Shown piece after piece: positions 31,751 through 60,793 of a stretch of 64,000 bases of DNA. Positions within the stretch are counted from its first letter, which is position 1, and every line of letters begins with the position of its first letter. Position numbers and translations under genes: made by a program. The notes under the pieces are model-generated. The model was not told the DNA's origin. It was given only the letters and a program-made list of their open reading frames with translations, and did no database searches. The DNA lies in the IMG/VR virus record IMGVR_UViG_3300045988_096313, positions 32,001-96,000 of that record; one strand, given 5' to 3'. The stretch comes from a virus.

Positions 31751-32344
31751 ATGGAACTCAGATTCGATTGGTGGCGTTGGCTCGTTACCATATTGGTAGG
31801 TTTCTTCATCATGCTGATGATGTACGGATGCCGGACAACAAGATATGTAGAAGTGGAAAAGGTGGTGCGAGACACTACTACTTATGCTCATTGGGACTCA
31901 ATCGTCAATGAAAGGGTTAAGCTCATTCGGGATAGCTTACTATCTTATCATTGGGAGCAGACCGAAAAGCATGTTAAGGACTCCACTTACATCAAGGATG
32001 ATGTCAAGACAAGGGTAGATGAGAGTGGTAAGGTGCTAGGTAAGGATTCTACTCATATAGAGATTAGATACAGGGACAGCAAGGAACTATCCAAGTTTCG
32101 TGATAGCCTTATTCATTATAAGGAGATAGCAGAGCGAGCGAGTATATATAAGGCTCAGAGGGATAGCCTAAACAGAGAATTGAGTATCGCCCAGACCAAA
32201 AAGGAATATATTGAGAAAGACTTGGAGGGATGGGATTTGTTCTATTGGAAATTCGGTATGATTTCCTTTTGGGTCGTTTCCTTGATGCTGGTTACAATGA
32301 TTTTCTTTCTCACGGTAAAATATAAGAAAAAGTTATTTTATTAG
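31751..32344 (+). CDS. unimolecular-spanin-like protein (N-terminal signal/lipobox-like, C-terminal TM)
   Basis: N-terminus WWRWLVTILVGFFIMLMMYGC (non-canonical lipobox), a charged helical middle and a C-terminal TM MISFWVVSLMLVTMIFFLTV. Start moved past the promoter. Confidence 0.4.
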   Translation: MELRFDWWRWLVTILVGFFIMLMMYGCRTTRYVEVEKVVRDTTTYAHWDSIVNERVKLIRDSLLSYHWEQTEKHVKDSTYIKDDVKTRVDESGKVLGKDSTHIEIRYRDSKELSKFRDSLIHYKEIAERASIYKAQRDSLNRELSIAQTKKEYIEKDLEGWDLFYWKFGMISFWVVSLMLVTMIFFLTVKYKKKLFY

Positions 32345-32395
32345 GTTGGTTTTTAGTTATTAAGGTTTTAGATTGGTTTAAGGTAACAACTTATG

Positions 32396-32431
32396 GAGCA
32401 GCTGCCAGTGATGGTGGTTGCTCTTTTTTTT
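32396..32431 (+). terminator. intrinsic terminator
   Basis: GAGCAGC/GTTGCTC stem (one G-T wobble) followed by TTTTTTTT. Confidence 0.75.
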
Positions 32432-32587
32432 ATCTTGAAAATGCATTAGGGTGCTAGATGTTAAAAATGCAAGTGGTTTAATGTGTTTATAGTTTTATAT
32501 ATGTAACTAAAATCGAATTGTGTGTTAAAAATTCGCAGAAAATAAAATAAAACACACTAAACCACTTGCGGATTGAAAATAAATTAG

Positions 32588-32595
32588 TATCTTTG
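32588..32595 (+). promoter_or_regulatory. -7 promoter box TATCTTTG
   Basis: Matches TAnnTTTG. It would drive the roughly 230-nt leader of the 32830 gene. Confidence 0.55.
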
Positions 32596-32601
32596 CAGCG
32601 T

Positions 32602-32736
32602 GCTTTGTTGGTGCTGACCCGCTTACAAGAATCAATAAGATTTTCCGTGGCGAAAGCCATATCACGATAATCCTTACCTAGATTTCGGGGTCAGACGAAT
32701 GAAGGGTAAGGATTTCTTTTTAGAATCCTTATTTTT
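32602..32736 (+). ncRNA. structured 5' leader with mutually exclusive antiterminator and terminator helices (riboswitch/attenuator-like)
   Basis: Helix A pairs 32614-32620 with 32688-32694. A GAAA-loop hairpin TGGC/GCCA lies near 32648-32659. The antiterminator pairs AATCCTTACC (32669-78) with GGTAAGGATT (32705-14). The terminator pairs TAAGGATT (32707-14) with AATCCTTA (32724-31), followed by TTTTT. Confidence 0.55.
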
Positions 32737-32829
32737 GAGTCGAAACATTCTTAGATAGCTCTAAGTAAGTAATGGGCTATAATTGTTGGAGTAAGCGAAA
32801 CACAAATAAGTTAAACAAATAAGGAATTT

Positions 32830-33660
32830 ATGGGAAAGCATTATTTACATATACGTATGGACTTGGTAAAGAAGTATACCTATGGTGCGTCATCATCAGA
32901 AGTGAAGGCGCACAAGGAGACGCTTTGCTTTGCTATTTGGTGTAAGATGCAACACAGAAATTCTGTAATATTTAACTTAACCATTAAGGATGTAAAGAAA
33001 AAACTCGGTGTAGGCTATCCAAAGGCAAGAAAATTGCTAAAGGATGTCAAGGAGGATGGACTCTTTACAGAACTTGGTAACGGGCGATTTATCGTGAATA
33101 CGTTCCGTGATAAAGAAAAGAAGACCAATAAAAAGGGCGGTCGCTTCCAAGGGGCTTATGTTTGTCGTATTCCTATTAGCAAGAACTATAAGCTAAAGGA
33201 GTTATATTCTATAGTCAACAATATTTTGTACACATCGGTTATTAGTGGTGCTCGTCAAGACTGTTTTAACGTTGGAAACAATAATTGTGCTTGGCATCAA
33301 CTAACTACTAACTCGTTTGCAAAGGTTGTGAATATGGGACATGGCTCTATATGCCGAATCAAGAAGAATCTTATCAGCAAAGGTAAGATTAAGTCCACGT
33401 ATGCGGAAATGCACATGGCAGATGATAGAAACGAGGGAGAGATGGAACGAACATTGCAAAGGTTTGGTCGTAGGAACTTTACGTTTAACGTAGGTAACTT
33501 GCACTATTTAATCATACCTTGCTCTTACTCTTTTGGAGACCGAGAGACTTCTGTTGCTATCAAGCACAGAATCTATGGTTATAAATTGAAGGGACATCGA
33601 ATGCAAATAAAGGAAAATGGCACAATAGGAAATCTACCTGATGACTTCTATGGTGGATAA
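32830..33660 (+). CDS. hypothetical protein with two winged-helix-like segments (possible replication initiator)
   Basis: TIKDVKKKLGVGYPKARKLLKDVKEDGLF and FAKVVNMGHGSICRIKKNLISKGKI. The Rep call is an inference from architecture and context only. Confidence 0.4.
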   Translation: MGKHYLHIRMDLVKKYTYGASSSEVKAHKETLCFAIWCKMQHRNSVIFNLTIKDVKKKLGVGYPKARKLLKDVKEDGLFTELGNGRFIVNTFRDKEKKTNKKGGRFQGAYVCRIPISKNYKLKELYSIVNNILYTSVISGARQDCFNVGNNNCAWHQLTTNSFAKVVNMGHGSICRIKKNLISKGKIKSTYAEMHMADDRNEGEMERTLQRFGRRNFTFNVGNLHYLIIPCSYSFGDRETSVAIKHRIYGYKLKGHRMQIKENGTIGNLPDDFYGG

Positions 33661-36637: not shown

Positions 36638-37774
36638 ATGATTTCATACAAGTATAAGCTATATCGGACAAAGAAGACGAAGCATTTGGATAAGATGCTC
36701 CGAGAGGCTTGCTATGTTTGGAATCATGCGCTTGCCTTGCAGATGAGGTACTATAAGCTGTACCACAAGTATATTCCAAAATTTACGATGTTTAAGCATT
36801 TCTCTAAGCGATATAAGCCAATATTGCTTAACGGTCATACCATTAGAGAAATTTTAGAGCGTTTGGATATAGCTTACCAACGTTTCTTCAAACACGATGC
36901 GAAGCGTCCACCGAAATTCAAAAAGGCATCTGAGTTTTGCTCATTTGTTTTTACTGATTGTGGTTATTCTCTTAGTGGAAATGAGTTGGCGATAAACAAG
37001 ATTAAGAAGTCCTTCAAGTTCTTTCTGAGCCGTTCCTACGATGGCAAGGTCAAGAGGGTGTCAGTTAAGCGCAACAAGTTGGGCGAGTACTTCATTATCC
37101 TTTGCTTAGATAAAGAAGCCAGACCTTACGGAAAGTCACACGATGGTGCATCCGTTGGCATCGACTTTGGATTGAAGAAGTACCTGACTTTGAGCGATGG
37201 GCGTGAGATTGATAATCCTCAGTTCCTTAAAGCTGACTTGCAGGAGCTTAGGCGCAGGTCTCGCAACTTCTCGAAGTGCAAGAAGGGCAGCAACAACCGC
37301 AAACGAAAGAAGCTGGAGTTGGAGCGATTGTATCGAAACATCGTGAACAAGCGTTCCGATTTTCAGTGGAAGTTGGCGCATGAGTTGTGCAAGCGTTATG
37401 ACTTGATTTGCTTGGAGGATTTGAACTTGGAGGGAATGATAAAGCGTTGGGGACGCAAGATGTCTGACTTGGCTCATGGCGATTTCGTTGTGAAGTTGGA
37501 GCACGTAGCGAAGAAGTATGGCGTTCAGGTTCATAAGATAGACCGCTTCTTCCCTTCGAGCCGTCTCTGTACCTGTGGTTACAAGAATGATAAGCTGTCA
37601 TTGAGTGATAGGATTTGGACTTGTCCTAGTTGTGGTGCAGTTCATCCTAGAGACCTCTTCGCAGCTGAGAATATACTTCGGCAGGGCATTGCCGAATTGG
37701 GGAGTGGTAGTAAGTCACCCAAGCACTCGCAAGGGCGCAGCCACGTTAGCCACCCAACAATTCCTTGCAAATAA
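36638..37774 (+). CDS. tnpB: TnpB (OrfB) RNA-guided RuvC nuclease
   Basis: Typical N-terminus MISYKYKLYRTKKT. RuvC triad candidates VGIDFGLKK (D), ICLEDLNL (E), HPRDLFAAENI (D). Zinc ribbon CTCG...CPSCG. Confidence 0.85.
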   Translation: MISYKYKLYRTKKTKHLDKMLREACYVWNHALALQMRYYKLYHKYIPKFTMFKHFSKRYKPILLNGHTIREILERLDIAYQRFFKHDAKRPPKFKKASEFCSFVFTDCGYSLSGNELAINKIKKSFKFFLSRSYDGKVKRVSVKRNKLGEYFIILCLDKEARPYGKSHDGASVGIDFGLKKYLTLSDGREIDNPQFLKADLQELRRRSRNFSKCKKGSNNRKRKKLELERLYRNIVNKRSDFQWKLAHELCKRYDLICLEDLNLEGMIKRWGRKMSDLAHGDFVVKLEHVAKKYGVQVHKIDRFFPSSRLCTCGYKNDKLSLSDRIWTCPSCGAVHPRDLFAAENILRQGIAELGSGSKSPKHSQGRSHVSHPTIPCK

Positions 37775-60733: not shown

Positions 60734-60793
60734 ATTTCACCTACTCTTTCAGGTTTTCGGCATCCCCTTTGCAATCTCTCATTGATTACACAG

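Follow-up and report, generated by a model that had tools for sequence, protein, structure and literature searches.

An exchangeable, structured 5' leader with competing helices upstream of a putative replication-initiator gene in a human-gut phage

What is the role of some 230 untranslated bases, foldable in several incompatible ways, at the head of a block of phage genes? The question is raised by a window of 64,000 nucleotides (nt), that is, the whole stretch analysed here, which covers positions 32,001 to 96,000 of IMG/VR virus record IMGVR_UViG_3300045988_096313. The window belongs to an uncultured human-gut phage whose near relatives among GenBank phage records are only unannotated human faecal virome contigs, and the same locus is found on hundreds of gut contigs of 60-290 kb in IMG/VR and ENA. 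Positions 32596-32832 of the window, between a strong terminator upstream (32395-32432, ending the gene for a membrane protein of 208 amino acids (aa)) and the gene for a 276-aa protein downstream, probably serve as 5' leader to the mRNA of the gene that opens a replication/DNA-modification block. A first-pass annotation, made from the letters of the window, had described a promoter-proximal, riboswitch- or attenuator-like leader in which three tiers of competing helices end in an intrinsic terminator before a Rep-like gene.

A structured leader with mutually exclusive helices is indeed present, and two of its helices, the closing helix P1 and the long-range helix a:b, are backed by comparative data. 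The pattern of substitutions among relatives indicates that the leader is a real RNA-level element under selection, with P1, a:b and the 3' hairpin P5 supported by compensatory changes. The promoter and leader together form a cassette that is exchanged between loci. With evenly balanced confidence, we hypothesize from the sequence that the leader acts as a cis-acting bistable RNA switch of four alternately complementary segments (a, b, c and d) that would mainly gate the initiation of translation.

Alternative helices within the leader

All of the helices first described are present: the closing helix (CTGACCC with GGGTCAG), the internal hairpin TGGC-GAAA-GCCA (32648-59), the 10-bp antiterminator helix, in which AATCCTTACC (32669-78) and GGTAAGGATT (32705-14) are perfectly complementary, and, as sequence, the terminator helix, in which TAAGGATT (32707-14) pairs with AATCCTTA (32724-31) and is followed by TTTTT (32732-36). 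In our nomenclature (Table 1) the last two are a:b and b:c, which compete for segment b. The P1 duplex has an energy of -23.2 kcal/mol and begins pairing at about the fifth transcribed base; its 3' strand lies between a and b, and P1 and a:b therefore have the topology of an H-type pseudoknot. The original scheme overlooked a further pairing, between c and d: the two are complementary at 13 of 14 positions, with d running into the AUG start codon, and the duplex energy is -9.1 kcal/mol. As c thus also pairs with the ribosome-binding region (32817-30), translational control is indicated. The leader had also been described as lacking an open reading frame (ORF); it contains one of 19 codons (ATG 32699 to TAG 32758), which has 12 codons in most relatives and 10 in a short-leader variant, and which stops just 3' of c in relatives and about 25 nt past c in the window.

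Folding calculations set these helices apart from chance. The 141 nt of 32600-32740 on the + strand have a minimum free energy (MFE) of -44.2 kcal/mol (z = -3.92), a value reached in none of 200 shuffles; the - strand folds more poorly (z = -2.18). A perfect 10-bp inverted repeat arises in 28 of 5000 dinucleotide shuffles (0.6%), a 10-bp helix whose 3' arm also opens a second 8-bp helix in 0 of 5000. When prefixes of growing length are folded, an RNA ending at 32704 has P1 with P2, P3 and P4, one ending at 32716-22 has a:b, those from 32732 onward have P1 plus b:c, and inclusion of the start region yields a:b plus c:d. Two global folds, each forced, are nearly isoenergetic (-65.2 vs -66.7, a gap of 1.5 kcal/mol), and the RNAalifold consensus of the full leader selects a:b plus c:d. 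The mutually exclusive helices a:b, b:c and c:d constitute an expression platform of the switch type. As in a classical attenuator, four segments form a chain, which here ends in the ribosome-binding region.

We suggest the following mechanism. In state I, P1 would close around P2, P3 and P4 and hide a, with b paired to c and d free; in state II, a would pair with b across P1, in the pseudoknot topology, and the freed c would pair with d, covering the ribosome-binding site and the start codon. The main output would probably be translation initiation, decided by c:d versus b:c, to which in this window the b:c hairpin, whose U-run is among the longest of the family, may add minor premature termination near 32736. 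The state would presumably be set at the invariant 5' domain by a protein, a trans-acting RNA, the kinetics of co-transcriptional folding or translation of the upstream ORF, and not by a metabolite: a metabolite trigger is unlikely because no core is conserved, and an antisense RNA to the leader is unlikely because the - strand carries no TAnnTTTG box in 32596-33377. The start site, the ON-state assignment and the trigger are parts of this mechanism that we infer.

Might the b:c hairpin instead be the point of decision, as in a transcription attenuator? With its U-run, b:c would then be an intrinsic terminator releasing an RNA of about 135 nt, a:b would be the antiterminator, and the choice would be made with the polymerase at 32716-32736. 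The geometry fits, with a hairpin of 8-10 bp followed by U5 in the window, and so do the flip of the MFE fold from a:b to b:c once c has been made and the covariation in a:b (see below). The hairpin itself argues otherwise. Where an intrinsic terminator has a stable G+C-rich stem and a short loop, b:c has an 8-bp stem with two G-C pairs and a 9-nt loop, and its energy (-10.1 kcal/mol in the window, -7.8 in most relatives) compares with -20.1 for the terminator at 32395-32432, about 300 nt upstream; a consensus terminator scan does not list it, because of those two G-C pairs. The U-run varies: among 33 distinct leader sequences (haplotypes) of the window's type, type A, U5 occurs only in the window and two others, with GUUUUG in 22, AUUUUG in 5 and AUUAUG in 3. 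A short type-A variant retains the hairpin and has no U-run, and the diverged type A' leaders lack c altogether. The terminator of the first-pass annotation thus survives as a weak 8-bp stem with U5 in this window; we regard attenuation as an unlikely, though still serious, account of the leader. The U-run of the window, TATTTTTG at 32730-32737 (+), also fits the consensus of the -7 promoter box in this window only; relatives carry TTGTTTTG or TATTTTGA there, and the match is probably due to chance.

Table 1. Features of the leader and of the adjoining genes, with positions in the window
Feature	Position	Strand	Remarks
-33-like element ACTTGC	32564-32569	+	TTG about 20 nt upstream of the -7 box; CTTG at 32565-68
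-7 promoter box TATCTTTG	32588-32595	+	Consensus TAnnTTTG; sole substitution among relatives at an 'n' position
P1, 5' strand	32603-32620	+	Core CTGACCC 32614-20; outer extension CUUUGUU 32603-09; RNAalifold
P2 hairpin, GAAUC / GAUUU	32629-32643	+	Includes TAAGATT; stem invariant, loop alone variable
P3 hairpin, GAAA tetraloop	32647-32660	+	Closing pair 32647:32660 is G-U, G-C or A-U
P4 local hairpin	32665-32687	+	Would mask part of a in the P1 state; no covariation; no counterpart in type A'
Segment a, AAUCCUUACCU	32669-32679	+	5' arm of a:b; core AAUCCUUACC from 32669
P1, 3' strand	32688-32704	+	Core GGGTCAG 32688-94; in the loop between a and b
Upstream ORF, MKGKDFF...	32699-32758	+	Starts just 5' of b; spans b and c
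Segment b, GGGUAAGGAUU	32704-32714	+	Partner of a or c; core GGUAAGGAUU from 32705
Segment c, UAGAAUCCUUAUUU	32721-32734	+	With U-run to 32736; partner of b or d; core AAUCCUUA from 32724
P5 hairpin, AUAGCUC / GGGCUAU	32755-32780	+	3' part of leader; type A' homologues ATGGC/GTCAT
Segment d, AAAUAAGGAAUUUA, and AUG	32817-32832	+	Segment d 32817-30, running into the start codon; ribosome-binding region; core UAAGGAAU from 32820
Gene for 276-aa protein	32830-33660	+	First gene of the rightward block
Remainder of rightward block			In order: RNase H-domain protein, 116-aa ORF, C5 cytosine methylase, TnpB gene

Selection on the leader and its diverged relatives

Type-A leaders were compared at 96 loci, which carry the 33 haplotypes. 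Nucleotide diversity (pi) falls sharply at the promoter, from 0.16 in the spacer (32435-32575) to 0.05 in the promoter and 0.023 in the 5' leader (32600-32736); the 3' part of the leader has 0.059, and third-codon positions in the gene that follows have 0.063. Of 137 sites in the 5' domain 17 are segregating, as against 66 of 276 at third-codon positions (p = 0.006) and 80 of 141 in the upstream spacer. The region of a, b and c (32664-32730) is invariant except at site 32689, where the change is compensated; in the stretch around b (32700-32719), near-invariant, pi is 0.001.

The changes that do occur preserve pairing. Haplotypes divide evenly between C-G and A-U at the P1 pair 32619:32689, and three loci (L019, L032 and L036) have P1 lengthened by an inserted C:G pair; in P5, the pair 32757:32778 shows a compensatory change between A-U (25 haplotypes) and U-A (7). 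An A to G change at 32670 in one locus (L059) leaves a G-U pair in a:b, and nearly every non-Watson-Crick pair of the helices is a G-U as read on the + strand. The c:d pairing is kept in all but one of the 33 haplotypes, by way of one-sided changes, the exception being a U-U mismatch (32730:32821). That the helices should covary in homologous leaders had been put forward at the outset, and the P1 pair switch, the inserted pair and the compensatory changes in a:b (below) bear this out for P1 and a:b. One tier of the original scheme lacks support: the motif TAAGATT, which had been placed at 32635-41 (its actual position is 32636-42) and given the part of an anti-antiterminator, lies in the local hairpin P2, is absent from type A', and changes at its first base without compensation.

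The protein family is narrow, forming 10 clusters at an identity of at least 56% and about 100 clusters by profile search. A search of 185,579 GTDB genomes found no member, and protein searches of IMG/VR with P0002, P0014 or P0019 brought up no more diverged loci; the contigs for P0014 and P0005 were too short to be of use. More diverged leaders come from three lineages, together called type A' (L082, L144 and L145-148), whose proteins are about 60-62% identical to that of the window in global alignment and whose leaders are homologous to type A in the 3' part and remodelled in the 5' part. There P1 has been rebuilt from wholly different sequence, with duplex energies of -21.9 to -39.0 kcal/mol, and the a:b helix is kept (GGAAACCCUUAC/GUAGGGGUUUCC, GAAACCCUUACC/GGUAGGGGUUUC and GGACCCUUAC/GUAGGGGUCU), with two compensatory changes relative to the window (U-A to C-G and A-U to G-C) and three wobble changes. 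Type A' leaders have no segment c, hence no terminator hairpin, and no P2, P3 or P4, the interior of P1 being an unrelated purine-rich stretch; at the start position of the upstream ORF they have AUG or UUG, in another frame relative to b. A covariance model of the type-A leader matches type-A leaders only and none of those of the diverged homologues, which are therefore not detectably homologous by this measure.

The simple architecture of type A', with P1 plus a:b and no competing c, argues for a static element, a pseudoknotted leader that does not switch and either stabilises the mRNA or fixes a low rate of translation. The pairing of P1 from about the fifth transcribed base would suit such a role, and unrelated leaders of the same gene family (next section) share only a topology, with the 5' end paired to a downstream loop. 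Left unexplained by it, however, are the near-isoenergetic folds, the a/b/c arrangement seen in 0 of 5000 shuffles, the invariance from a to c, and the c':start-codon pairing recreated in the short variant, and we consider a static element improbable.

The same remodelling bears on the possibility of a new class of metabolite riboswitch, with the four-way junction of P1-P4 as aptamer. Within type A this is an appealing idea: a multi-stem junction with a GNRA loop, whose unpaired nucleotides are highly conserved, precedes a switch-like expression platform and has no Rfam entry. The earlier statement that the sensor part of roughly 90 nt could not be matched to a known riboswitch class holds, as a scan of 32596-32832 against Rfam 15 is empty at gathering thresholds, and a search of a 601-nt slice at E <= 10 has no match in the same interval; tRNA and tmRNA searches were likewise negative. 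The metabolite-sensing logic invoked with it is not supported, given the lack of an Rfam match and a P1 interior that is not conserved between types. Type A' keeps P1 and a:b with the interior replaced, and since the interiors of A and A' are unrelated there is no conserved candidate for a ligand pocket. The target gene encodes a phage DNA-binding protein, not a metabolic or transport function, and the element is confined to one narrow phage group, not being found in the 185,579 GTDB genomes through its gene. We therefore give a metabolite riboswitch hardly any credence.

A last question is whether the leader belongs to the downstream gene at all, or is an independent gene for a trans-acting small RNA (sRNA) of about 135 nt with incidental read-through, or else is subject to antisense control of the pT181 type. 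Bacteroides intergenic sRNAs are typically marked by a promoter, a structure and a hairpin followed by a U-run (PMC7366714), and conservation in the leader is higher over the 137 nt at its 5' end than in its 3' part. Against an sRNA gene stand the weak terminator, whose U-run is missing in the short variant, and the 3' part itself, which holds a covarying helix and a ribosome-binding site complementary to c; moreover, the only further promoter box from 32596 to the ATG is the window-specific chance match in the U-run. Against antisense control, which the first-pass annotation had offered as a parallel, stands the lack of a box for a countertranscript: no TAnnTTTG occurs on the - strand of 32596-33377, a result that covers this promoter type only. 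Both versions appear very improbable to us.

Exchange of promoter-leader cassettes

A scan of IMG/VR for the invariant leader core found at least 119 stretches, 110 of which could be classified by their downstream sequence. Among these 110 loci listed, the downstream gene encodes the window-type protein in 62, a 274-aa protein beginning MHQIR in 41 and a 297-aa protein beginning MRNRTLNIP in 7. By hhalign, the MHQIR protein has only a remote relationship to the family (probability 95%, 18% identity), and the N-terminus of the 297-aa protein resembles the family consensus NIPxxL, as judged by eye. The same type-A leader thus precedes three alleles with at most about 20% identity. At the MHQIR loci the junction falls just after d, and d therefore belongs to the leader; at the 297-aa loci, which carry the short variant, the leader is cut inside the b:c loop, the b:c hairpin remains without a U-run, and a new segment, c', pairs with AUGAGGA, which includes the start codon, in the MFE fold.

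The converse also occurs. Two loci (L108 and L116) have proteins that are 97% identical and upstream genes that are about 92-96% identical, with unrelated promoter-leader segments, of types B and C, and a breakpoint at the ATG, while L108 shares an 89%-identical leader of type B with a locus (L127) whose protein is 41% identical. The promoter-leader unit is an exchangeable cassette. Exchange with breakpoints at the start codon concerns L108, L116, L127 and L132 (and L152-L256).

Although unrelated in sequence, the leader types share a general topology, in which a helix close to the start codon has its loop paired with the 5' end of the leader. Type B has a kissing contact between a 5' hairpin loop and the 7-nt loop of a second hairpin, which has 16 bp and ends 10-14 nt before the AUG. 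All 7 bp of this contact form in each of 15 distinct sequences (100% paired), three positions being compensatory, and slid controls are 25-40% paired; the percentage paired, the number of double-change cells and the covariation score lie above those of all 500 shuffles, whereas measures that count pairs or pair types did not exceed all shuffles. In type C, P1 is formed by GUGUCGGC/GCCGACAC in one lineage and by GUAGUGG/CCACUAC in another, with three compensatory positions, and is accompanied by a GAAA hairpin and by a helix, AAAGGAUUUC/GGAAUCCUUU, that holds the 3' strand of P1 in its loop and is followed by U7 and AUG. Rfam has no match in 12 loci carrying other leader types. Another locus, L081, has an extra upstream unit at 2650-2770, consisting of a TACCTTTG box, a structure of about 90 nt and a strong hairpin with a U6 terminator, followed by a second promoter and a shorter leader; the extra unit may be a separate small RNA.

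Cassette exchange also bears on how the repeats within the leader are to be seen, as they might act in DNA: the AATCCTTA / TAAGGATT motifs could be operators or iterons for the winged-helix protein encoded downstream. Close to the gene of a DNA-binding protein, one motif of 8-10 nt occurs four to five times in alternating orientation, a further copy is found at 32036-48, iteron-like direct repeats lie upstream of the gene at another locus (L126), and inverted half-sites bound by a dimer would co-vary too. Yet an identical leader stands before three alleles of little similarity, and 97%-identical proteins have unrelated leaders, which sites specific to one protein would hardly allow. P1, P5 and the kissing loops of type B co-vary though they are not repeats of the motif; the mismatches are G-T in the sense of the + strand and not A-C, and the + strand folds better than the -; and the copy at 32036 is gone where the upstream gene has been replaced. 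Sites acting at the DNA level are, in our estimation, a most improbable explanation of the leader. The copy in question, CTAGGTAAGGATT at 32036-32048 (+), lies within the upstream gene and is perfectly complementary to segment a over 13 nt; it persists together with that gene, is missing from relatives that have the same leader behind a different upstream gene, and is probably incidental. Autoregulation by the encoded protein is unlikely for a similar reason, as leader types and protein alleles reassort.

By analogy with plasmid incompatibility determinants, the cassettes, with at least four unrelated folds, might serve as specificity determinants for a trans-acting factor or RNA of phage or host. 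This is a speculative proposal that we hold to be rather unlikely; type A as a new riboswitch class would be a less likely version still. If it were true, related gut phages could co-infect without cross-regulating the synthesis of their replication initiators.

Several of these comparisons weigh against the bistable switch that we favour. Type A' lacks c, so that the logic of four segments is not general, and P1 plus a:b may there be a static pseudoknot; in the MHQIR variant d is 13 nt from the AUG, so that c:d would occlude only indirectly. Type-A leaders have diverged little, one or two events may account for each covarying pair, and neither b:c nor c:d has double changes. Flips of the MFE fold with transcript length also arise in random sequences. 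The weak terminator of state I and its free ribosome-binding site would act in opposite directions, which makes the ON/OFF assignment uncertain. Shine-Dalgarno-like sequences are missing before most genes of the window, with AGGA upstream of 10 of 54. Finally, the start site, any termination near 32736 and any switching are all predictions from sequence.

Known systems, the regulated gene and its surroundings

The closest parallels to a bistable switch in this position come from plasmids. In the antisense attenuation of pT181 repC and of pIP501/pAMbeta1 repR, as here, a leader precedes a (putative) replication-initiator gene and a 'preemptor' helix (here a:b) competes with a downstream hairpin plus U-run (here b:c) for one segment; the present leader differs in having no TAnnTTTG promoter on the opposite strand, a weak terminator with a variable U-run and an extra pairing of c with the ribosome-binding site, as well as a Bacteroidota host with a different promoter type, and its Rep label is putative. 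In IncI-alpha, IncB and IncL/M plasmids, translation of repZ/repA depends on a pseudoknot (Asano & Mizobuchi; Praszkier & Pittard; via PMC8053102). The leaders of these plasmids likewise have a long-range contact near the rep ribosome-binding site that decides translation, and a short leader ORF, and the type-B leaders, whose kissing loop abuts the AUG, are their closest likeness within the gene family. In the window, by contrast, the P1 / a:b pseudoknot lies about 95-115 nt upstream of the AUG, a pseudoknot of a 5' hairpin loop with sequence next to the ribosome-binding site occurring only in the non-homologous type-B leaders of related phages; the ORF at 32699-32758 ends 72 nt before the AUG (farther in relatives), without coupling to rep; and neither an antisense Inc RNA nor any relation in sequence is evident.

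Translational riboswitch platforms, built from sequestrator and anti-sequestrator helices or, as in SAM-II and preQ1, from pseudoknots, resemble the leader in a 5' domain closed by P1, in a pseudoknot topology and in exclusive helices, the last of which covers the ribosome-binding site; they differ in that the leader has no match to a known aptamer, no ligand core common to A and A', and a non-metabolic gene. Among phages, the pseudoknot operator of T4 gene 32 and HK022 put RNA are RNA elements of 5' leaders (PMC9378689), and they too are cis-acting folded RNAs that head an early or replication transcription unit. No ligand is needed for the action of put on downstream terminators, and the gene 32 leader has a 5' pseudoknot for translational autoregulation; unlike in gene 32, autoregulation is unlikely here because leader and protein alleles reassort, and there is no similarity in sequence or in Rfam. 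Catalogues of candidate structured RNAs from viruses and human microbiomes list cis-regulatory motifs upstream of phage genes, with 10,006 candidates (PMC10690425, PMC8040213), and draw on the same sources, IMG/VR and the human gut. Leader RNAs with alternative helices before replication or early genes are well known, while Rfam 15, against which alone novelty was judged, contains neither this motif nor its sister cassettes.

Translation in Bacteroidota is mostly initiated without the lead of a Shine-Dalgarno sequence, and their promoters are unusual; for these reasons, little is known of post-transcriptional control in this phylum and its phages. In this setting a compact, apparently bistable RNA of about 230 nt heads the replication/DNA-modification block of an abundant gut phage group (more than 100 IMG/VR contigs), and segments a, b, c and d offer a mutable model for the gating of translation or termination. 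Cassette exchange and the topology shared by unrelated leaders are the most interesting results: swapping at the start codon gives a testable picture of how regulatory modules of phages evolve, and the leader is a possible regulatory part for engineering Bacteroides or its phages.

The regulated gene encodes a protein with two winged helix-turn-helix domains. A first AlphaFold model was poor (predicted local distance difference test, pLDDT, 56); the model from an alignment of 81 sequences has a pLDDT of 89.5. Pfam returns only generic helix-turn-helix families, and the PDB has no significant structural match to the deep-alignment model and none by sequence. In BFVD the matches are phage proteins of uncharacterised function, together with a few that bear the name replication protein O or replication initiator (E 5e-5 to 1e-3, template modelling (TM) score 0.3-0.5). 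At L126, where a homologue is 42% identical, at least six GAAATCGTGCG repeats stand in two clusters about 150-270 nt upstream of the gene; they look like iterons, which would fit the role of a replication initiator. A gene for an RNase H-domain protein follows in both A and A' loci. The label 'Rep-like' given to the product is thus plausible in view of its domains, the BFVD names and the L126 repeats; we regard it as a putative phage replication initiator.

Promoters of the Bacteroidota sigma-ABfr type have TAnnTTTG at -7 and a TTTG-like element near -33 (PMC7366714). Both are found upstream of the leader in conserved form, TATCTTTG (32588-95) and CTTG (32565-68): CTTGC is invariant among relatives despite variable surroundings, and from the published Bacteroides consensus (PMC7366714) we infer that ACTTGC is the -33 element. 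Transcription would start at about 32598-32603. TAnnTTTG boxes number 100 in the window, against 74 +/- 9 expected, and TATCTTTG recurs before genes; by this enrichment of the -7 consensus, a host from the Bacteroidota is almost certain. Nearly all leader types have a -7 box at a distance of 120-246 nt before the ATG, L127 carrying a TTCG variant, and at L126 the distance is just 38 nt; between 32596 and the ATG no further box occurs besides that in the U-run.

Upstream of the -33 region and overlapping it is an imperfect inverted repeat of 31 nt (32458-32488 / 32550-32580, 81% complementary), and the hypervariable spacer around 32458-32580 also carries repeated TTGAAAAT / GTTAAAAAT motifs. 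As an RNA helix the inverted repeat was rejected, its pairs not being maintained in relatives, with many A-C and other mismatches; it could be an operator or origin feature at the DNA level. Farther upstream, the interval 32303-32434 (+), which comprises the 3' end of the upstream gene and the terminator, has sub-threshold matches to the Bacteroides small RNAs GibS (23.5 bits) and FopS (20.8 bits); a hairpin of this region with the loop GCCAGUGAUGGU is kept with different stem sequences at L082, L144 and L145, and the region may be an RNA derived from the 3' untranslated region that resembles a host sRNA.

Downstream, the last gene of the rightward block (36638-37774, +) is of the TnpB / IS605 OrfB type, with OrfB_IS605 and Cas12f1-like TNB domains, and has a TATCTTTG box of its own at 36577-84. 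The sole Rfam family found in the window at gathering thresholds is the DUF805b RNA (RF02914), at 60738-60770 (-), with 40.3 bits (E = 6e-8), above the gathering score.

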